Assembly (NCBI GenBank): GCA_964577565.1
Contig: CAZNZL010000001.1
Coordinates: 206,566 to 270,565, forward strand
Reading direction: 5' to 3'
Length of the DNA stretch: 64,000 bases
Source: an uncultured Candidatus Saccharibacteria bacterium
GTDB lineage: Bacteria; Patescibacteriota; Saccharimonadia; Saccharimonadales; JAGQNJ01
The notes beneath the pieces are model-generated. The model was not told the DNA's origin. It did no database searches and saw only the letters and a list, made by a program, of their open reading frames with translations. The position numbers were made by a program, and so were the translations under genes. Positions 17,896 to 36,146 of the stretch are shown piece by piece; positions within the stretch are counted from its first letter, which is position 1, and every line of letters starts with the position of its first letter.

Positions 17896-18489
17896 TTACG
17901 TTAATACCTTGTCAATAAGGCCATATTTTTTAGCTTCTTCGGCGCTCATCCAGAAATCACGCTCAACATCGGTTTCTATTCTTTTAATTGGCTGACCGGT
18001 GTTTTTTGCTAAAATTTGGTTAAGTAACTGCTTTAAACGCAACCCTTCTTTAAGGTCAATTTCCATATCGCTCACACGCCCTCGCGTACCGGCAGAAGGT
18101 TGGTGAATCATGACGGTTGCGTGCGGCAATAAGTAGCGTTTGCCCTTGGCACCCGAACTAAGCAGAAAGGCTGCAGCACTTGCCTGAACGCCAATACCAA
18201 CGGTTTGGACATCGCTTTTTACGTATTGCATGGTGTCATAGATTGCAAACGCATCGTAAACACTGCCACCAGGGCTGTTTATATAAAATTTAATGTCTTT
18301 TTTTGGGTCTTCATTTTCTAGAAATAACATTTGTGCTACCACTAAGTTAGCGGTATGCTCATTTACCTCGGTACCCAAAAAGATTATACGGTCTTTGAGT
18401 AAGCGCGAATATATATCAAACGCGCGCTCTACACGTCCCTCATTCTCAATAACCGTTGGAACTAGAACTGAATTTTTTGTATGTATCAT
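17896..18489 (-). CDS. clpP: ATP-dependent Clp protease proteolytic subunit
   Basis: Catalytic Ser ([10 protein letters not shown]), His (MIHQP) and Asp ([10 protein letters not shown]) contexts are present. The start is set at MIHTKN (18489), which has AAGGA upstream. The track's longer ORF would read through the CIRCE/promoter. Confidence 0.95.
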
Positions 18490-18524: not shown

Positions 18525-18554
18525 AGTATAGCCAAATTAGCACTCGTCAGTCAA
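18525..18554 (-). promoter_or_regulatory. clpP promoter (TTGACT-N18-TATACT) overlapping CIRCE
   Basis: Reverse complement = TTGACTgacgagtgctaatttggcTATACT. The -35 box lies in the CIRCE spacer. Confidence 0.6.
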
Positions 18555-18563
18555 GAGTGCTAA
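18537..18563. promoter_or_regulatory. CIRCE operator (HrcA binding site), perfect consensus
   Basis: TTAGCACTC-gtcagtcaa-GAGTGCTAA matches TTAGCACTC-N9-GAGTGCTAA exactly. Confidence 0.85.
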
Positions 18564-18779
18564 TTTATTATGCTCTGCTTTTTCAAATGCAGCTAACAAA
18601 TCATACGCCTCTTCATTGCAACGAGCCTCAGCAATAACACCAATGAGAATTTCAAGAGAATGTCCTTGAGTTATAAGTGCCAAGCCAAGTGTCTCGACAT
18701 CATAACGTGTAATTACGTTATGTTCGGGGCGGTATCTGAAACTTGCTGTAGATGGTGTCTCATGAGCGTTTTCACTCAT
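18537..18779 (-). CDS. Hypothetical protein (80 aa) between tig and clpP; uncertain
   Basis: The ATG overlaps the tig stop (TAATG). The last 9 codons (KLALLTDEC*) are the CIRCE sequence itself. No recognisable domain. Confidence 0.35.
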
Positions 18780-20068
18780 TATTTTTTAGCGGTTGCGTTG
18801 TCTATAAGCATTCTAACGGTTTTTTCCGTTACCAGGCGGGAAGCTATTTCTTGACGGGCTGAAGGCTTATCAAGCTCTGCTTGCATGGCTGCATCTTGGT
18901 ACTGTGCTTTAAGAAGTTGTAACTGCTGATCGATCTCTTCAGGTGTTACATCAACACCTTCTTTCGATGCTATTTCTGCCAATACCAGGCCCGTTTTGAC
19001 TCTTCGTTCTGCTTCAGGACGAAGTTCTTTCGCAACAAATGCATCTTCGGTTGTACCCTCAGCTTCAAGCATCTCTTGCCAGGTTTGACCACGATAGGTC
19101 AAATTCTGCCGGACTTCTGTTTTAAGACGCTCTGTTTGCTCGTCAACCAGCTGCACAGGCAAGCTGACGTTGCTTTGATTGACAATTTCGCTAACTAGCT
19201 CATTTTGTAGCTGGCTGTCAGCTTGTTTTTGTTTTTCATGGTGCAGCTGCTTTTTAATGTCGGCTTTAAGATCTTCAAGTGTTTTGAATGGCCCAACCGT
19301 GCTTGCAAACGCATCATCAATCACTGGTTTTGTTATAGCATGCACTTTCTTTACTTTAACGGTAAACGTAACTTTCTTATTTGCAAGGGTTTTTACGCCG
19401 TAATCTTTCGGAAATGTTAATGTAAACGTTTTATCATCACCCGTTTTCATACCGACCACGTTATCTTCAAAACCTGGAATAAAGCTATTGCTGCCAAGCA
19501 CCAGCGGATAATCTTCGGCTTCGGCACCATTAATCGGCTGCTTCTTTGCATCTTCGCCCTTAAAATCAATAACGACTTCGTCACCTGATTTAGCGGGACG
19601 CTTAACTTCTTCGCGCTTGGCGGCTCTTTCGCCTAGGCTTTCAATCACCCCTTGCACATCTTGTGCTAATATTTTGACCGTCGGTTTCGTTTTTTTAATT
19701 TTTGTATAGTCGGGTAACGTTACGGGCCCTAAAATTGTAACTTCCGCCTTGAACTCAAGCTCGGTATACGGTACAAATTTTTGTAATTGCACATTGGGGT
19801 TATCAATAGGGCGGAGCTTTGCCTCCTGAAGTGCCTTTTGATACAAGTGATTAATTGCCTCTTCTACGAATTCGGCTTGTAACTGGTTTTGATCAACGTG
19901 CTTTTCAACAACTGAAAGCGGCGCCTTACCGGCACGGAACCCGGGCAACTTTATTTTTTGAGCAAAATGCGAAAGAGTGTGCTGTTTTATGGCGTCTAGA
20001 TCAGATTGGCTTGCCTTAATGATTAGATCTATGTGGGTAGGAGATTCTTGTTTCTTCGTTACGTGCAT
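18779..20068 (-). CDS. tig: Trigger factor
   Basis: 429 aa with the N-terminal GFRAGKAP ribosome-binding signature and a central FKBP-like region. Confidence 0.95.
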   Translation of the reverse strand: MHVTKKQESPTHIDLIIKASQSDLDAIKQHTLSHFAQKIKLPGFRAGKAPLSVVEKHVDQNQLQAEFVEEAINHLYQKALQEAKLRPIDNPNVQLQKFVPYTELEFKAEVTILGPVTLPDYTKIKKTKPTVKILAQDVQGVIESLGERAAKREEVKRPAKSGDEVVIDFKGEDAKKQPINGAEAEDYPLVLGSNSFIPGFEDNVVGMKTGDDKTFTLTFPKDYGVKTLANKKVTFTVKVKKVHAITKPVIDDAFASTVGPFKTLEDLKADIKKQLHHEKQKQADSQLQNELVSEIVNQSNVSLPVQLVDEQTERLKTEVRQNLTYRGQTWQEMLEAEGTTEDAFVAKELRPEAERRVKTGLVLAEIASKEGVDVTPEEIDQQLQLLKAQYQDAAMQAELDKPSARQEIASRLVTEKTVRMLIDNATAKK

Positions 20069-27727: not shown

Positions 27728-30676
27728 ATGAAAACCTCTAGACGCCGTAGTCGTGTGAGTAAGAATGTATTTACGACACGCAGCGGCAAGTCAGTTAAAC
27801 TAAACCGAAGTTTATCTGAAAGAATGAAGGGACTAAAAGACAGTAAAGCGTTACGAAAAGCGGAACGCCTTAGCGGCATGCCAAAATCCCGCCTCAAACG
27901 ATTCTTTTATCGCCTCCATCCACAACGCATGGCCCAGTACTGGTTTAGCCGTGAAGGCGGCATTATGGCCCTTAAAATTACCGGCATTGGGCTTATTAGC
28001 GGCTTTCTTATTTTAGTTGGTTTGTTTGCCTTCTTTAGAAAAGACCTGCCTAACTTACGCGATATTTCTGGCAACAACATAGGTGGGAGCATCCGCTACT
28101 ATGACCGTACGGGTCAAACGCTGTTATTTGAGGATTATGACGCCGTAAAACGCATTCCTATTAAAGGTGATATGATCAGCCAAAACATGAAAGACGCTAC
28201 GATTGCTATTGAGGATAAAGACTTCTTTAAGCATGGCGGTTTTGATGTTCGAGGTATTATGCGTGCTGGATTCAACAACGCGTTTGGACGTTCGGGTGGC
28301 CAGCAGGGTGGCTCAACAATTACACAACAATTAGTTAAGTTGTCACAAGATTGGACCAAAGACCGCACCTACACCCGTAAGATTAAAGAACTTATTTTAG
28401 CAGTCGAGCTAGAACGAACTTATTCCAAAGACGAAATCTTAGCTGGTTACCTTAACACTGCACCGTACGGAGGTATTGAATACGGCGTCGAAGCCGCTGC
28501 TCAAAACTACTTTGAAAAATCAGCCAAAGACCTCACCCTTGACGAGGCAGCTATGTTTGCAGCCATTCCAAAATCGCCAAGTTTTTATTCACCCTATAGC
28601 AACGACTTTGATCGCGAAGCATTCATTGGTCGACAACATTATATTTTAGACTTAATGGCCCAGCAGGGTATGATTCGCAACGAGGAGCGTGACGCAGCTA
28701 AAAAAGTAGACACCCTAGCTAAAGTTAAGCCTCGAAAACCAAAGTATGATGGTATACAGGCACCGTGGTTTGTGTTGGCTGCCAAAGAACAACTTGAAGA
28801 CACTCGAGGACAAGATGCCGTACAGCGTAGTGGCTGGAAGGTTACCACAACACTTGATCTAAATTTGCAAAAGGCCGCCGCAGAACAGGTTCAAAAAGGC
28901 ATGACTCAAGTACGTCGCCAGGGCGGTGATGTTGCAGCTTTTGTGGCTGAAGACGTTAAAACAGGCCAGATTGTAGCTTTGGTTGGCGGTACAGACTTTT
29001 CTAACCCAGAGTTTGGCCAGAATAACTACGCACGTTTGCGCTTACCCCCTGGCTCGAGCTTTAAGCCATATGATTATGCTGCTCTCATTGAAAACACTAC
29101 TAATTCTGGTGCAGGTTCAGTCTTATACGACACACAAGGGCCCATTGAAGGTTATCCTTGTACTAACAAACAGCGTCCAAAGCAGGGCGGTAATTGTTTG
29201 TGGGATTACGATTTTCGTTACCCTGGACCATTAACATTACGTTATGCACTGGGCGGCTCACGAAACGTACCCGCGGTTAAGGCAATGTTGATTGCCGGCG
29301 TCGATAAAACCATACAAACAGCTGAAAAGCTTGGTCTCAAGAGTGGTTATAAATGTTTCTTGGACGAATCGTTCACCCAAGAACAACAATGTTACGCTTC
29401 ATCAGCTATTGGTGACGGTGCATACTTGCGAATGGATGAACATGTTCATGCCTATGCTTCACTATCACGAAATGGCCTTAACATACCACAAACCTACATT
29501 TTAAAAATTGAGGATGCAAATAATAAAGTTGTTGACGAATGGAAGCAACCTAAAGGCGAACAGGCTGTTCGTGAAGAGACCGCATATATAATCTCAGATA
29601 TTTTATCTGATCCTAAAGCCAGCTATTTCTCACGTAAGGCACATGATTATCGTGGCCACAAGTACTCACTCAAGACCGGTACCACCAACGACACCAAAGA
29701 CGGTTGGTTAATGGGTTATTCTACGCACTATGCTGCAGGCGTATGGGTTGGCTACCACACTCGCCAAAAAGAAATGACCGGATTCATGGAAAATATGACA
29801 CGCCCGATCTGGAAAGGTTGGATGGATGAAGTCCACAGTAATTTACAGCCCGAAGAACGCAAAAAGCCAAACGGCCTTCAAACAAGCCAGGCATACGTCG
29901 TTCGTACTGCTGTTGGTGGCGGCGCAGTTGTACCAAGTCCTGCCCAAGACATGTTCCCTTCATGGTACAAAAATTCTAGAAGGGCATCTAACACCAAACA
30001 AACAATCGATATTGTATCGAACAAGCTAGCAACCGACTGTACACCGCCACGTGCCCGCAAAGAGACAACAGACGCTCAAGCCGATGCCTTTTCTAGTGAT
30101 ACATTTGTCGGCACCGGCGGCGGGGGTAACAATACCTCAGCCGAAAAAGATGACGTTCACAGATGTGAAGACGCCAAGCCTAACATTACGCTAACGGTTC
30201 AGCAATCAGGCGACTCATATAATTTGATTGCCACGGTAAGTCAGGGTACGCACCCGTTGTCCAGTGACCGCTTTAAGGGTAATGTTACCTTTAGTGTTAA
30301 TGGCCAGGCGCTGCCTGGTGGTTCATATGAAGTGGGCAGCCCCAGCTCAATCGTGTATCAAAACTATAAACCGTCGGGATCGGTTACGGTAACTGCTACG
30401 GTAGTAGATAGCGTTTTGTATGACGCAACCGATAGCGCAACCGTGGGAAAGAATGGAGACATTTCTTTAATCAGCGCCACGAAGAGTGGCGGGACACTAA
30501 CCGTGGTATGGACAGGCGCAACCGGCAACGTGACGATTAGAAAAGGTAATACCATCATCCCTTGTAACGTATCGGGGTCAGGTTGTACGTCAAATACAAA
30601 TGCAGTCAGTGTTGGAGATACAATCATTGCAACTGATGGTTCAGGCAAGTCTGATTCAATAAAAGTTAAAAACTAG
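27728..30676 (+). CDS. Class A penicillin-binding protein (PBP1A type: glycosyltransferase plus transpeptidase) with a long Thr/Ser/Gly-rich beta-type C-terminal extension
   Basis: GT51 motifs EDKDFFKHGGFD, GGSTITQQL and RKIKE. Transpeptidase motifs SSFK, SRN and KTGT. N-terminal TM anchor. Confidence 0.93.
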   Translation: MKTSRRRSRVSKNVFTTRSGKSVKLNRSLSERMKGLKDSKALRKAERLSGMPKSRLKRFFYRLHPQRMAQYWFSREGGIMALKITGIGLISGFLILVGLFAFFRKDLPNLRDISGNNIGGSIRYYDRTGQTLLFEDYDAVKRIPIKGDMISQNMKDATIAIEDKDFFKHGGFDVRGIMRAGFNNAFGRSGGQQGGSTITQQLVKLSQDWTKDRTYTRKIKELILAVELERTYSKDEILAGYLNTAPYGGIEYGVEAAAQNYFEKSAKDLTLDEAAMFAAIPKSPSFYSPYSNDFDREAFIGRQHYILDLMAQQGMIRNEERDAAKKVDTLAKVKPRKPKYDGIQAPWFVLAAKEQLEDTRGQDAVQRSGWKVTTTLDLNLQKAAAEQVQKGMTQVRRQGGDVAAFVAEDVKTGQIVALVGGTDFSNPEFGQNNYARLRLPPGSSFKPYDYAALIENTTNSGAGSVLYDTQGPIEGYPCTNKQRPKQGGNCLWDYDFRYPGPLTLRYALGGSRNVPAVKAMLIAGVDKTIQTAEKLGLKSGYKCFLDESFTQEQQCYASSAIGDGAYLRMDEHVHAYASLSRNGLNIPQTYILKIEDANNKVVDEWKQPKGEQAVREETAYIISDILSDPKASYFSRKAHDYRGHKYSLKTGTTNDTKDGWLMGYSTHYAAGVWVGYHTRQKEMTGFMENMTRPIWKGWMDEVHSNLQPEERKKPNGLQTSQAYVVRTAVGGGAVVPSPAQDMFPSWYKNSRRASNTKQTIDIVSNKLATDCTPPRARKETTDAQADAFSSDTFVGTGGGGNNTSAEKDDVHRCEDAKPNITLTVQQSGDSYNLIATVSQGTHPLSSDRFKGNVTFSVNGQALPGGSYEVGSPSSIVYQNYKPSGSVTVTATVVDSVLYDATDSATVGKNGDISLISATKSGGTLTVVWTGATGNVTIRKGNTIIPCNVSGSGCTSNTNAVSVGDTIIATDGSGKSDSIKVKN

Positions 30677-32013
30677 TTTTCTAAGAAACTATTTAACGCA
30701 GCACGTATATCTTTAACTGAATGAAGCATGGCGTTTTTATCACTTGCTTTTGGGCCAATAGCAAGCTTAAAGCCCAGCTTCTTGGCTTCGGCAAGGCGTT
30801 TATCTACCATTGGTACATGTCGTACTTCACCGGCCAGGCCAACCTCACCAAATACAACCGCATTGTCTTTTAACGTAAGTCCTTTGGCAGCCGAGCCGAT
30901 TGCCATACAAACGGCCAGGTCTGCTGCAGGCTCTTGAATGCGAATGCCGCCCACAATGTTAATATAGATATCTTTGTCGGCTAACTGCAGCTTGGTACGC
31001 CGCTCCAGCATAGCGATCAAAACATTAAGGCGATTACTATCAATGCCGCTGGCAGTACGCTTGGGGTAGCCAAAGACACTACGATTTACCAGTGCCTGCA
31101 CCTCAACCAATAGCGGCCGAGAACCCTCTAGGGTAGCGAGTACGATTGACCCATCAACAACTTGCCGTTCTGCCAACAACGCCTTAGAAGGGTTATCAAG
31201 CGGCATGAGCCCATTATCCTTCATTTCAAATATGGCTGACTCGTTGGTAGAACCAAAACGATTTTTTACACTGCGCAGCACTTTAAAGCCGCCATACCGA
31301 TCACCTTCTAGCTGAAAAACGCCATCAACAATGTGCTCAAGCAGTTTTGGGCCAGCGATGTTACCCTCTTTTGTGACGTGACCGACTATTATTAAACAGG
31401 TATCAGATTGTTTAGCAGCCGACATTAACAGGTGGGTACTGCTTGTAATTTGACTCACGCTGCCCGGTGAGCTAGAAACACTCTTACATTGCAGCGTTTG
31501 TATTGAATCTACAATCGCAAGATCATAACTAGAGCTCACCATTGTGGCTGCAATGTCGTCAGCTACTGAGCTCGTAGCTAGTGACAATTCTGGCGTTGTC
31601 ACCCCTAGCCTTTTAGCTCGAAGCCCCACCTGATAGGCAGATTCTTCACCGCTAACATACATTACCTGTTTGCCGCGCGAGGCAATGGCCGATGCAACCT
31701 GCATTAAAAGCGTGCTTTTGCCAATACCAGGTTCGCCGGCAATTAATATAATTGACCCTTTAACCAGACCGCCACCTAAAATGCGATCTAATTCACCATA
31801 CCCTACTTTAATTCTTTCTTCATTTTGGCTCTGCAGGCTGGTTATTGGTCTTAGATTAAGAGATTTGCCGGGCGACGCCTTTGCATCAAACTCTTCAATA
31901 ACCTCTTCTTCTAACGTGTTCCATTCGCCACAAACATGACACCTTCCTGACCATGATGGTGATTCGGCACCACAATTACTACACACATAACGCTTTCCTT
32001 GCTTCTTAGCCAT
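30673..32013 (-). CDS. radA: DNA repair protein RadA
   Basis: N-terminal Zn finger CSNCGAESPSWSGRCHVCGEW, Walker A GEPGIGKST, KNRFG motif and a Lon-like C-terminal domain. Confidence 0.95.
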   Translation of the reverse strand: MAKKQGKRYVCSNCGAESPSWSGRCHVCGEWNTLEEEVIEEFDAKASPGKSLNLRPITSLQSQNEERIKVGYGELDRILGGGLVKGSIILIAGEPGIGKSTLLMQVASAIASRGKQVMYVSGEESAYQVGLRAKRLGVTTPELSLATSSVADDIAATMVSSSYDLAIVDSIQTLQCKSVSSSPGSVSQITSSTHLLMSAAKQSDTCLIIVGHVTKEGNIAGPKLLEHIVDGVFQLEGDRYGGFKVLRSVKNRFGSTNESAIFEMKDNGLMPLDNPSKALLAERQVVDGSIVLATLEGSRPLLVEVQALVNRSVFGYPKRTASGIDSNRLNVLIAMLERRTKLQLADKDIYINIVGGIRIQEPAADLAVCMAIGSAAKGLTLKDNAVVFGEVGLAGEVRHVPMVDKRLAEAKKLGFKLAIGPKASDKNAMLHSVKDIRAALNSFLEN

Positions 32014-32022
32014 AGATACAGT

Positions 32023-32982
32023 CTAGAACGATTGAGGACGGCTATCAATGGCTTGGGCAAGATCTTGTACTTCAATAGCTATATTGTTGCGGGCTTGAAC
32101 AATGTCGTTATAGCGGTTAATGAGCTGATCGGTTTGCCTTACCGTGTTGTTATAGCGAGCTACCTGTTCATTAAAAGCTGGCACGGCTGCGTTATAGGCT
32201 TGTACATGGCCGTTTGTCAGCAACGAATCCATGCGGTTTTTCTGAGCTTGTAGGTTTTTGTATTGAACTGACAGCTCTGTTTTACTACCGTCAATTTCAA
32301 CCTTTAATGAAGCCAGTTGGCCATCATACGCCGCAACTTGGTCTTTTCTGTTTTCAAATTCGGCTTCATAGTGCCGAGACAAATCTACTACTGCTTGACG
32401 ATTGCTAAAATACTTCTGATAGTAAACTTCTAAATCAGGCGGTAACTCTTCAACCTCTGTTGGGAGTATAGAGTGAAGTTCGTTTGGAACTATACCTGGG
32501 TTTTGCCGCTGATAGCTTGCAATGTTGCTCCGAACACGTTCGTTTGCAACCTGTTGATAGGCCTGTAGGGTTAATTGATCAATATGGTCACGCTCTTTAT
32601 TACTCAAACGATCATATGCGGCGTGAAGCATCTCGTGAGCAGCAGTCACTTCTACAACTCCCTGCAATCGAGGATCATTAATGTTGTATAGGTAAATACC
32701 GTCGTTAGGAATATAGCAGCCCAATACGATACTCGCTTCAAGCTGACATTTTTGATTAAATTCAGTCTTATTTGCAATTACCGGCTGATTAACATAAAAG
32801 AGTCTTCGACCATACTCGGTCATAGTGGTTTTATCTGCAAGCTGGACAATTGCAGCAGGCGGACTGTAATTGCGCAGTTGATACCAATCGTAAATATTTT
32901 GGCGCTGAAACCATACAATGAACAACGTAGAGAGCATAAGCAAACCAAGTACAATACTCAGCAGCTTCTTGGCAACTTTCAT
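32023..32982 (-). CDS. Membrane-anchored hypothetical protein with an HExxH motif and a coiled-coil C-terminal half (putative Zn metallopeptidase)
   Basis: N-terminal TM LLSIVLGLLMLSTLFIVWF, then AAHEMLHAAYD, and a Gln/Asn-rich heptad-like C-terminus. Confidence 0.5.
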   Translation of the reverse strand: MKVAKKLLSIVLGLLMLSTLFIVWFQRQNIYDWYQLRNYSPPAAIVQLADKTTMTEYGRRLFYVNQPVIANKTEFNQKCQLEASIVLGCYIPNDGIYLYNINDPRLQGVVEVTAAHEMLHAAYDRLSNKERDHIDQLTLQAYQQVANERVRSNIASYQRQNPGIVPNELHSILPTEVEELPPDLEVYYQKYFSNRQAVVDLSRHYEAEFENRKDQVAAYDGQLASLKVEIDGSKTELSVQYKNLQAQKNRMDSLLTNGHVQAYNAAVPAFNEQVARYNNTVRQTDQLINRYNDIVQARNNIAIEVQDLAQAIDSRPQSF

Positions 32983-32988
32983 ACTCGT

Positions 32989-32994
32989 ATTATA
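32989..32994 (-). promoter_or_regulatory. -10 box TATAAT, 6 nt upstream of the ATG at 32982 (leaderless configuration)
   Basis: Reverse complement of 32983-32994 = TATAATACGAGT, then ATG. Confidence 0.45.
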
Positions 32995-33015
32995 CCTTTT
33001 TTGCTTTGCGTATGG

Positions 33016-35493
33016 CTATTCGTTGCTCACACTGTAGGCAAGATCTTTATTTTTTGTACCTACTTCAACTACGGTACCCTTGTCGTACATACCATTAATA
33101 AGCTCAACAGCAATATGATCCTCTAATGTGTCTTGTAGTAAGCGTCGCATTGGCCGTACGCCGTTTAATGCATCGTACCCATTTTTAAGAAGGTAGTTTT
33201 TAGCTGCAGGCGTCAGTCTAACGCTGACCCCTCGCTTAGTGAGACGTTGCTTAAGCTCATCAATTTGTAAATCCAGGATTCTAAGAATGTTTTGGCGTGT
33301 CAAAGCCCGGAATACAATAATTTGATCAATTCGGTTTAATAACTCTGGGCGCATCATTTTCTTAAGCTGATCAAGTACCTTGTCTTTATTGGCATCATGT
33401 AACTTGTTAAGATCGTTAAGATCCTCTTTATCAACGGCGCTAAACCCAAGGCTTACTTCTTTTTGGAGCCGTTCCGCACCAATATTACTGGTCATAATTA
33501 CAATAGTGTTCGTAAAATCAATTTTACGGCCCTTTGCATCCGTCAGCGTACCGTCTTCAAGAATCTGCAGCAACATATTAAAGACGTCTGGGTGGGCCTT
33601 CTCAATCTCGTCAAACAACACCACACTGTACGGCTGGCGTCGTATTTTATCGGTCAGCTGGCCGCCATCATCATAACCCACATAACCAGCCGGCGCACCA
33701 ACAAGACGCGCAACATTATGATGTTCACCGAACTCACTCATATCTATTTTTACAAGTGATTCTTCAGACCCAAAAAACTCTCGTGACAATACTCGTGCCA
33801 GTTCGGTTTTACCCACCCCTGTCGGACCTAAGAAAATGAATGAACCAATCGGCCGCTTAGGACTACTAACGCCCGAACGGTTACGGCGAACAGCCCGCGC
33901 CACAGCGTGAACTGCTTCATCTTGCCCAATAACGTATTTGCCAAGATTCTTCTCTAAGTTAAGCAGGTATTTTGCCTCTGATCTGATGACTTTTTGTACG
34001 GGTACACCGGTTGTTCGCGCAACAATTTCAGCTACGTCGTCGCTTGTCATACTGATTTTTTTGGTCTCTTTTTCTGAGGCTTGTAACTTCTTTAAATCGG
34101 CATGAATCTGGCTAGCGCGTTGTTTATGCTGGGCCGCCTTTTCATAATCTTCACTATCAACGGCATCTTCAATGCGCGTATTAATGAGTTTTAGCTCATT
34201 CTTAAGTTTGCGCACTTCTGGCGGCGTGCGGCCCTTATCAATACGCAAATGAGCGGCTGTTTCGTCAAGAAGATCGATCGCCTTATCTGGCATAAATCGA
34301 TCATTAATGTAGCGGTCAGCCAAACCAACAATATCTTCTAATACTTCATCGGCCACGGTAACGCCATGAAAAGCCTCGTAATGCTTACGAAGACCTTTTA
34401 AGATTGCAACTGTCTCTGCTTTATTGGTGGGAGGTACTTGAATGGGCTGAAAACGGCGCTCTAAGGCACTATCCTTTTCGATATGCTTGGTATATTCAGC
34501 TGTAGTAGTAGCACCAATTACCTGAACTTTCCCGCGCGCTAAAGCGGGTTTAAGAATATTACCCGCATCGAGCGCTCCTTCGGCTGCGCCGGCTCCTACA
34601 ATTAAGTGCAATTCATCAATGAAGACAATGGTTTTTGTGTCGTTTTCAAGTTCGGTCATAACCTTCTTTAGACGCTCTTCAAACTCACCCCGATATTTTG
34701 TGCCTGCAATCATAGCGGTTAAGTCAAGCATAACAATACGCTTATCAAGCAGGCTGTCAGGAACATCTTCGCTGATAATACGCTGGGCTAAACCTTCAAC
34801 AATAGCAGTTTTTCCAACGCCGGGCTCGCCTATTAAGACAGGGTTATTTTTAGTACGGCGATTCAAAATGGTTACCATTCGCCTAATTTGGGCATCGCGG
34901 CCAACCACTGGATCAAGCTTAGCGTCACGTGCAGCTTGTGTTAAATCGGTACCAAAAAAATCAAGAGCCGTTTTACGACGTGGTTTTTTACGAGCAGTGC
35001 CCGAACCGTTGCTTGACCCCTCTTCGTATTGCTGACGATTAAGAAACTGCTCTAATTCGTTCATAAGGCCATCTACATTTATCTTCATATCACGCAGCAA
35101 AACAGTTGCGCGGGCATTTTTTTGGCTCAGTATGCTGTACAGAATATGCTCAGTACCACAAAATTCTTGATTATAATCTTGTGCAATATCATAGGCCATT
35201 TTAAGCGTTAATTTGGCGGTTTCACTCAAGCCCTTTGCACCCATATTAATCACCAATGTCTTTGGCGTTAAATTAAGCGCCAGGCGAGCTCGGTCAAGCG
35301 TAACGCCAGCGTCTTGAAGTAATTTTGCGCCCATTGAAGATTCTTGAGCCAACACACCCAAAAGCAGGTGCTCAGTACCAACATAGGGGCTACCAGCTGC
35401 ACGTGCAATACCATCTGCGTGGCGCAAGCTTTGAAGCCCGTTCTCTGTAAGATGATTGATAAATTCTTGAAATTCTGATGAGTTTGGTGGCAT
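33016..35493 (-). CDS. clpC: ATP-dependent Clp protease ATP-binding subunit ClpC
   Basis: 825 aa with duplicated Clp_N repeats, two AAA+ modules ([16 protein letters not shown]) and a short UVR-type linker. Confidence 0.93.
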
Positions 35494-35508
35494 AAATTAT
35501 CGCTCCGC

Positions 35509-35627
35509 TTAATAAGACAAACCTAGGGGTTTTTCTCATCGCGCCAGGCAAAAAGTATGATACTGTACCCCTCAAAATTTCATTTTGTGGGGACCCCAGT
35601 TTTTGCTTGGGCTGCTCTTTTCCCTCC
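35509..35627 (-). repeat. Third copy (C) of the mini-ORF/RNA element, in the clpC 5' UTR; non-coding, with an expanded central hairpin
   Basis: The gene strand keeps GGGAAAAGAGCAGCC and GCGCGAUGAGAAAAACC-loop-GGUUUGUCU. The central hairpin is about 40 nt longer, and the A/B reading frame is broken by stops. Confidence 0.6.
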
Positions 35628-35661
35628 AAAGTGCAGGGGCGGTGGTTTCTCCGCTACTACC

Positions 35662-35691
35662 AGTATAGCGAAATTAGCACTCGTCAGTCAA
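35662..35691 (-). promoter_or_regulatory. clpC promoter (TTGACT-N18-TATACT) overlapping CIRCE
   Basis: Reverse complement = TTGACTgacgagtgctaatttcgcTATACT. Near-identical to the clpP cassette. Confidence 0.6.
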
Positions 35692-35700
35692 GAGTGCTAA
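35674..35700. promoter_or_regulatory. CIRCE operator (HrcA binding site), perfect consensus
   Basis: TTAGCACTC-gtcagtcaa-GAGTGCTAA, identical to the clpP copy. Confidence 0.85.
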
Positions 35701-35717: not shown

Positions 35718-36146
35718 CTAGTTTTCTGGAATATCTTCGACCGACATTATCATTTGCTGACGGAAAAATTGTTTTACATTCTCATCTTTATCGGCACATA
35801 AAGCTTCTATCTTTTCCCGAACAATCTGCGCGCCCTCAGAATCTGTATCTTTTATTTGCCATAAGATACCGGTATATACTCCAGCAAGTGAAATATCATG
35901 ATCCCGAGGGATGAGAATACGTGGAGCTGTTTCGTAAGCTCCTCCCACAAAGTACTGCGCAATATGATCACGTAATCCAGCATATGGCGAAACATCCTCT
36001 AAAGCGCTTAATTGACGCTTTATAACCCACGCTTCATCTGGACTCAATAAAACTGCCTCAGGGCTAATCTCAAAATCTGAGACCTCTAAAAAATCCGGAT
36101 CGCGTTTTCTATCTGCGGGATTAAAACCAGAGAATCTATCTATCAT
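35718..36146 (-). CDS. Hypothetical acidic protein (142 aa), apparently leaderless
   Basis: ORF between nusA and the clpC promoter. A consensus-like promoter ends 6 nt before its ATG. No recognisable domain. Confidence 0.6.
   Translation of the reverse strand: MIDRFSGFNPADRKRDPDFLEVSDFEISPEAVLLSPDEAWVIKRQLSALEDVSPYAGLRDHIAQYFVGGAYETAPRILIPRDHDISLAGVYTGILWQIKDTDSEGAQIVREKIEALCADKDENVKQFFRQQMIMSVEDIPEN

Follow-up and report, generated by a model that had tools for sequence, protein, structure and literature searches.

The DNA analysed here, referred to as the window, is a stretch of 64,000 nucleotides (G+C content 44%) from an uncultured Candidatus Saccharibacteria bacterium, with the gene order rpl-tuf-fusA-rpsGL-rpoCB-clpP-tig-hisS ... 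radA-orf319-clpC-ORF142-nusA. The same strain is present in SRR7082976, where short Logan contigs contain exact copies of the ClpP and ClpC proteins. The close relatives recovered are all MAGs of Saccharimonadia or Candidatus Saccharibacteria, and a scan of the whole window against Rfam returned a tRNA-Leu only. The start codon of clpP (ATG at 18489) is preceded by AAGGA as a Shine-Dalgarno sequence, and the predicted leader of the gene is approximately 29 nt long. The 825-aa ATPase encoded further along the window (Table 1) has the architecture of a ClpC that docks onto ClpP.

Table 1. Features of the clpP and clpC loci in the window, and loci of other genomes and metagenomes in which the exact 27-bp repeat precedes a gene
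Feature	Position or locus	Strand	Evidence and remarks
clpP, 197 aa	17896..18489	-	PF00574, E 6.5e-78; NF001368, 298.9 bits (cut-off 249)
clpP promoter, -10 hexamer TATACT	18525..18530	-	18 nt past the -35 box; promoter scan
CIRCE operator 1 (candidate)	18537..18563	-	left arm 18563-18555, spacer 18554-18546, right arm 18545-18537
clpP promoter, -35 hexamer TTGACT	18549..18554	-	first six bases of the CIRCE spacer; promoter scan
ORF80, 80 aa, between tig and clpP, status uncertain	18537..18779	-	no family match
tig (trigger factor), upstream neighbour of clpP	18779..20068	-	conserved order
ClpC-type AAA+ unfoldase, 825 aa	33016..35493	-	Clp_N repeats, two AAA modules, short middle region, LGF in EVSLGFSAV
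clpC 5' leader (predicted), about 160 nt	35494..35655	-	unusually long, relatively G+C-rich
clpC core promoter	35662..35691	-	TTGACT 35691-35686, 18 nt, TATACT 35667-35662; promoter scan
CIRCE operator 2 (candidate)	35674..35700	-	left arm 35700-35692, spacer 35691-35683, right arm 35682-35674
ORF142, 142 aa, between nusA and the clpC promoter	35718-36146	-	no Pfam or NCBIfam match
Exact 27-mer before clpC	L002, L006, L007, L009 (contig shared with L018), L012, L013 (contig shared with L019), L014, L016
Exact 27-mer before clpP	L008, L011
Exact 27-mer before hrcA	L005
Exact 27-mer before dnaK	L003, L010
Exact 27-mer before dnaJ	L015

The start of ORF80 overlaps the stop codon of tig (TAATG), and its last nine codons (KLALLTDEC) together with the stop codon coincide with the candidate operator; it matched no Pfam or NCBIfam family, and tblastn against loci L001-L036 gave no homologue. 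The interval between tig and clpP in relatives holds small ORFs of 41-238 aa that differ from one relative to the next. ORF142 has a counterpart of 152 aa with a similar C-terminus in the closest relative (L041:9438-9896), gave no tblastn match in L001-L036 and is missing from distant relatives, where nusA abuts CIRCE. An intrinsic terminator was also considered at the two repeats and rejected, given that the stable hairpin is followed by TTTGGC or TTTCGC with no T-run and that the terminator scan was silent. On the other side of clpC, the linkage clpC-orf319-radA (30673-35493) resembles the clpC-radA part of the Firmicute ctsR-mcsA-mcsB-clpC-radA cluster, here lacking the ctsR-mcsAB genes. 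The gene orf319 is kept in relatives, its sole Pfam match being the sub-threshold hit to IMD (22.4 bits, cut-off 26.2).

On the plus strand, the sequence at 18537-18563 reads TTAGCACTCGTCAGTCAAGAGTGCTAA, the arms of which agree with the CIRCE consensus at 18 of 18 positions, as the sequence-only reading had stated in describing a perfect HrcA operator at this place. Scanning the window for TTAGCACTC-N9-GAGTGCTAA with up to three mismatches returned this site and one other (35674-35700), which is likewise perfect and lies ahead of clpC; the earlier proposal that both Clp components in the window carry a CIRCE thus holds. The two 27-mers are identical, spacer included. Read on the minus strand, and therefore in gene orientation, the clpP site is TTAGCACTC TTGACTGAC GAGTGCTAA TTTGGC TATACT and the clpC site is the same with TTTCGC before TATACT, so that approximately 39 nt from CIRCE through the -10 box are shared except for one base (G/C). 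An independent scan with a generic sigma-70 promoter model called TTGACT-18-TATACT at both places (18554..18525 and 35691..35662), each with 10 of 12 consensus positions. This agrees with the clpP promoter read from the sequence before, in which the -35 box had been assigned to the N9 spacer, and the earlier description of the site proved correct throughout. Each CIRCE extends over the -35 box of its clp promoter and on towards the -10 box, with the right arm taking up 9 of the 17-18 bases that separate the two hexamers.

It is extremely improbable that the two matches arose by chance or that they are members of a dispersed repeat family that plays no part in regulation. Dinucleotide shuffles of the window contained 0.03 CIRCE matches on average and reached two sites in 0 of 100 cases, both observed sites occupy the promoter position of functionally linked genes, the relaxed pattern TTAGCACTCTTGACNNNNGAGTGCTAA had no match in IMG/VR, and the orthologous positions are conserved across Saccharimonadia. 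The one point in favour of coincidence is that the same 27-mer occurs, reversed, ahead of a Planctomycete groES gene (L004, L020), which indicates that identical spacers can arise independently.

A search for exact copies of the 27-mer covered 185,579 genomes (one per species) as well as JGI metagenomes. With the exception of the one Planctomycete groES site, all matches belonged to Saccharimonadia or unclassified Patescibacteria, and in these the orientation with TTGAC reading forward faces a gene that starts 8-242 nt downstream (Table 1). The Planctomycetia copies (L004:5233-5259 and L020:2595-2621, from a MAG) precede groES in the opposite orientation; the spacer consequently offers no -35 box on the gene strand, and this occurrence is probably an independent coincidence. 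Since the 27-mer matches had been selected by the pattern itself, a second sample was drawn by protein similarity alone. In this sample, the genes of all four ClpP homologues (82-91% identity) were preceded, at a distance of 20-39 nt, by a CIRCE with at most one mismatch, and those of all three ClpC homologues (79-92% identity) by a perfect CIRCE at 57-63 nt. Six of these seven sites have TTGAC at the very start of the spacer; in the remaining one it is moved to position 5.

Altogether, the CIRCE arms are kept at the orthologous place in six other distinct clpP loci of Saccharimonadia, and the arrangement before clpC recurs in 11 other distinct loci of this class. The surrounding gene order is also conserved, with hisS-tig-(variable small ORFs)-[CIRCE]-clpP-rpoB-rpoC at the one locus and nusA-[CIRCE]-clpC-orf319-radA at the other, and the complete genome CP060231.1 holds both CIRCE-clpP (L024) and CIRCE-clpC (L039). 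In another clade of Saccharibacteria, clpC and clpP are adjacent behind a single CIRCE (L006:4466-7555, L013, L016), which supports the view of ClpC and ClpP as partners. This clade is of gut and rumen origin and Nanosyncoccus-like, and the two genes apparently form one operon there; in the clade of the window, clpC and clpP lie at separate loci with a CIRCE each.

Of 26 tabulated sites, 24 have TTGAC at spacer positions 1-5 and one has it moved to position 5; each of these 25 also has a TAnnnT hexamer 16-18 nt past TTGAC, so that the promoter-operator geometry is common to 25 of the 26. The arms are invariant or nearly so across loci, the last four spacer bases vary freely (TGAC, ATAA, TATT, GTGT, CCGC, TTGC and GTCC, among others), and the sequence flanking CIRCE and the rest of the spacer beyond TTGAC have diverged between relatives. 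Fixed arms and promoter hexamers amid otherwise variable sequence are the footprint expected where a palindrome bound by a protein has been merged with a core promoter.

An inverted repeat of this kind could also act mainly at the RNA level, as a terminator or 3'-stabilising hairpin for the tig-ORF80 and ORF142 transcripts. As RNA, the repeat does form a stable hairpin with 13 base pairs (-17.4 kcal/mol, z-score -5.5), and at both sites it directly follows the upstream ORF. However, the tail of the hairpin is UUUGGC or UUUCGC with no U-run, the terminator scan makes no call, and an embedded TTGAC at a fixed distance from a -10 box serves nothing in a terminator. A structural RNA hairpin would moreover tolerate compensatory changes, of which none were seen, the arm sequence itself and not just its pairing being invariant across species. 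Given that hrcA and dnaK are also preceded by the same sequence as the clp genes, we regard a mainly RNA-level role as highly improbable and return to the repeat as an operator.

The repressor expected to bind such an operator is encoded in relatives within the lineage; the 64-kb window itself contains no hrcA gene. In the relative L005, a protein of 238 aa (L005:5764-6480) was identified as HrcA by its matches to PF01628 (E 2e-17), PF03444 and TIGR00331 (E 1e-53). Its gene begins 50 nt past the exact 27-mer and is followed by grpE, two CIRCEs and dnaK; this arrangement, hrcA-grpE-[CIRCE x2]-dnaK with an operator ahead of hrcA, was found in L005, L033 and L035. The placement of hrcA itself behind CIRCE corresponds to classic autoregulation. 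In L033, which comes from a JGI contig of 1,018,082 bp (hrcA at L033:10001-10705), CIRCE precedes hrcA, dnaK and dnaJ. The longest contigs that carry this HrcA (P0047) and a ClpC (P0347) have the same length of 1,018,082 bp, and both proteins are therefore probably encoded on one contig; the copy of the P0347 clpC gene in L037, a contig of 397,336 bp from another sample of the same series, is preceded by a perfect CIRCE. In L003, CIRCE is found ahead of an hsp20 gene as well, while ftsH in L035 carries none. From these loci we infer a lineage regulon that would comprise hrcA-grpE, dnaK, dnaJ, hsp20, clpC and clpP.

The promoters of dnaK differ in having two CIRCEs, the starts of which are exactly 48 nt apart (L003:1325-1399, L005:6973-7047, L010:331-405 and L017:1080-1154). 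The first of the pair holds the -35 box. The second departs from the consensus at 2-4 positions and follows the -10 box, so that this degenerate copy is in the classical position.

HrcA is highly conserved within the lineage, with more than 120 clusters at a minimum of 79% identity to the L005 protein and 8000 matches, but it is short (234-250 aa, compared with 338-353 aa for canonical forms in alignment A2). The difference is due to one contiguous internal block of approximately 100 aa (A2 columns 140-240), which is absent from proteins that retain the winged helix and the C-terminal half; the lineage form thus departs from the canonical full-length architecture of a winged helix and a C-terminal domain with an internal insert. 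Against the TIGR00331 model of approximately 340 aa, the short form scores 182.7 bits in two stretches, under the cut-off of 197.2. The missing block may be the inserted dimerising domain described for 1STZ, the crystal structure of Thermotoga maritima HrcA. Many short HrcA relatives of 227-257 aa, down to approximately 32% identity, are present in the representative library and lack this block as well. AlphaFold2, run on a shallow alignment of the short form, produced a model too poor to be used (mean pLDDT 46.8).

The atypical length of the lineage HrcA and the identity of the window sites over approximately 39 nt, as expected from recent promoter duplication or gene conversion, could suggest that the palindrome is the operator of a non-HrcA regulator or that the clp sites were merely copied from a chaperone promoter and have no function. 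The winged-helix DNA-binding domain is, however, well conserved with canonical HrcA (L005 HrcA aligns to residues 15-133 of 1STZ, E 5.5e-18), the PHTSAGR(V/I)PT motif of this domain is kept in alignment A2, and hrcA carries the same CIRCE in front of its own coding sequence. Furthermore, the clp sites are shared across genera although their spacers have diverged, which indicates that they are old and under selection and not recent copies. Neither version of this explanation is likely, and we give them a very low probability.

Operators of other stress regulators were looked for in the window. The CtsR heptad operator GGTCAAANANGGTCAAA had three matches with three mismatches where 2.4 were expected, which is chance level, and none of these lay upstream of clpP or clpC; nor does ctsR(-mcsA-mcsB) lie directly upstream of clpC, where the neighbours are ORF142 and nusA. 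The HspR element HAIR (CTTGAGT-N7-ACTCAAG) had no match in the window with up to three mismatches.

Taken together, we are confident, as far as sequence comparison allows, that the 27-bp repeat is an HrcA operator fused to a sigma-70-type clpP promoter, with an identical copy at the clpC promoter. The -35 box of either clp gene would most likely be masked by HrcA and the gene thereby repressed: since this box lies inside the spacer, occupancy of the palindrome should be incompatible with sigma-factor contact at -35, which leads to an occlusion model in which an HrcA dimer on both arms would cover the -35 region and exclude RNA polymerase. As CIRCE overlaps the promoter, it would lie outside the clpP mRNA, judged by the predicted transcription start. 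Loss of HrcA activity would derepress both halves of the ClpCP protease and, judging from the relatives, hrcA-grpE, dnaK, dnaJ and hsp20 alongside them, so that the control exerted by a single chaperone-type repressor probably extends to proteolysis by ClpC-ClpP. By analogy with other bacteria, the signal that inactivates HrcA may be heat or protein-folding stress. In addition to titration, intrinsic instability of HrcA is a further route to its inactivation in model organisms. Titration by GroEL serves as the inactivating signal in other bacteria (PMC7737663).

On a broader scale, we hypothesize that a miniaturised HrcA lacking the segment of approximately 100 aa is the sole transcriptional regulator of proteostasis in Saccharibacteria, and perhaps in other Patescibacteria too, acting via the fused promoter-operator at hrcA-grpE, dnaK, dnaJ, hsp20, clpC and clpP and replacing the role of CtsR, ClgR or sigma-32. 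This is a tentative proposal, to which we would assign somewhat less than an even chance. Transcriptomes of TM7x in co-culture provide weak and mixed support for the regulon: a clp ATPase and clpP were upregulated together, whereas most chaperones moved in the opposite direction. If TM7x carries the same sites, these data argue against strict co-regulation.

In B. subtilis, CIRCE sits between the promoter and the start codon. Compared with this position, the CIRCE of Saccharibacteria is different in that it encloses the -35 box instead of following the promoter. The operator consensus, TTAGCACTC-N9-GAGTGCTAA, is identical to that of the HrcA/CIRCE system of the B. subtilis dnaK and groESL operons (consensus according to PMC545781). 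Further similarities to the canonical system are the repressor family (PF01628, PF03444, TIGR00331), the linkage hrcA-grpE-dnaK(-dnaJ) and the autoregulation of hrcA, while the repressor of Saccharibacteria is approximately 100 aa shorter. ClpC and ClpP, the ATPase and the peptidase of the protease, are among its predicted targets, whereas Bacillus has both in a separate CtsR regulon (PMC6305308). HrcA regulons are known to vary, with groESL as the sole constant member (PMC545781); groESL was not seen among the retrieved loci of Saccharibacteria, none of which is a groESL locus.

A close parallel to an extension of the regulon towards proteases is found in mycoplasmas, as the sequence-only reading had pointed out, and this precedent is real (PMC7737663). 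In Mycoplasma pneumoniae, the HrcA regulon comprises dnaK, dnaJ, clpB, groESL, lon, pepA and pip (PMC7737663), and HrcA acts as a specific regulator of chaperones and proteases in a reduced genome, as it may do here (PMC7737663). The likeness extends to the gene layout, given that lon in M. pneumoniae sits behind tig and CIRCE and that the order tig-[CIRCE]-protease is thus common to both, with lon in the mycoplasma and clpP in Saccharibacteria (PMC7737663). The two systems differ in that M. pneumoniae belongs to another phylum, possesses neither ClpP nor ClpC and has Lon as the regulated protease.

Among Firmicutes, the clpP gene of Streptococcus salivarius is reportedly under dual control by CtsR and HrcA (Chastanet and Msadek 2003, J Bacteriol 185:683). 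S. salivarius thus resembles Saccharibacteria in having clpP under HrcA/CIRCE control, but its HrcA is said to act together with CtsR, whereas the clp promoters of the window have no CtsR box. It constitutes a Firmicute precedent for HrcA-controlled clpP, one that the reading of the window from sequence alone had overlooked. In Oenococcus oeni, CtsR is the only stress regulator and hrcA/CIRCE has been lost (PMC6305308). The similarity lies in a small genome that has a single repressor for its chaperone genes and its clp genes alike (PMC6305308); in the choice of the repressor, O. oeni is the mirror image, as it has kept CtsR while Saccharibacteria appear to retain HrcA/CIRCE.

To our knowledge, the way in which Patescibacteria (the candidate phyla radiation) regulate transcription is almost entirely unexplored. 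Full-text searches brought up no paper in which HrcA or CIRCE is discussed for Saccharibacteria or TM7, nor for Patescibacteria or the candidate phyla radiation as a whole. The finding is a lineage-wide variant of a known system and not a new kind of system, and it leaves the general understanding of HrcA/CIRCE action unchanged; its new elements are both ClpCP halves as targets, the fused promoter-operator geometry and the shortened repressor. It provides a concrete and testable regulon for ultrasmall episymbionts, in which chaperones and ClpCP stand behind a very conserved 27-bp operator and a sigma-70-type promoter. It would also add another reduced genome that collapses its heat-shock network onto one repressor, in parallel to Mycoplasma with HrcA and as a mirror of Oenococcus with CtsR. 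Furthermore, a strong native promoter-operator cassette is defined that could become an inducible expression tool in tractable Saccharibacteria. Some Saccharibacteria are now reported to be amenable to genetic manipulation (PMC10633639).

The distance between the promoter and the coding sequence varies considerably within the lineage. In L002, L006, L008, L013, L014 and L016, the ATG of clpC or clpP lies 6-8 nt past the -10 hexamer, and such proximity suggests that several relatives may produce leaderless mRNAs. The predicted clpC leader of the window, at the other extreme, had no match in Rfam even at E<=1 and none in the phage collection, and its folding (z-score -1.86) points to modest structure. 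In the closest relative (L041/L042, with a ClpC 92% identical), only approximately 45 nt separate the same -10 box from the ATG, and the long leader of the window therefore represents an insertion of approximately 115 nt.
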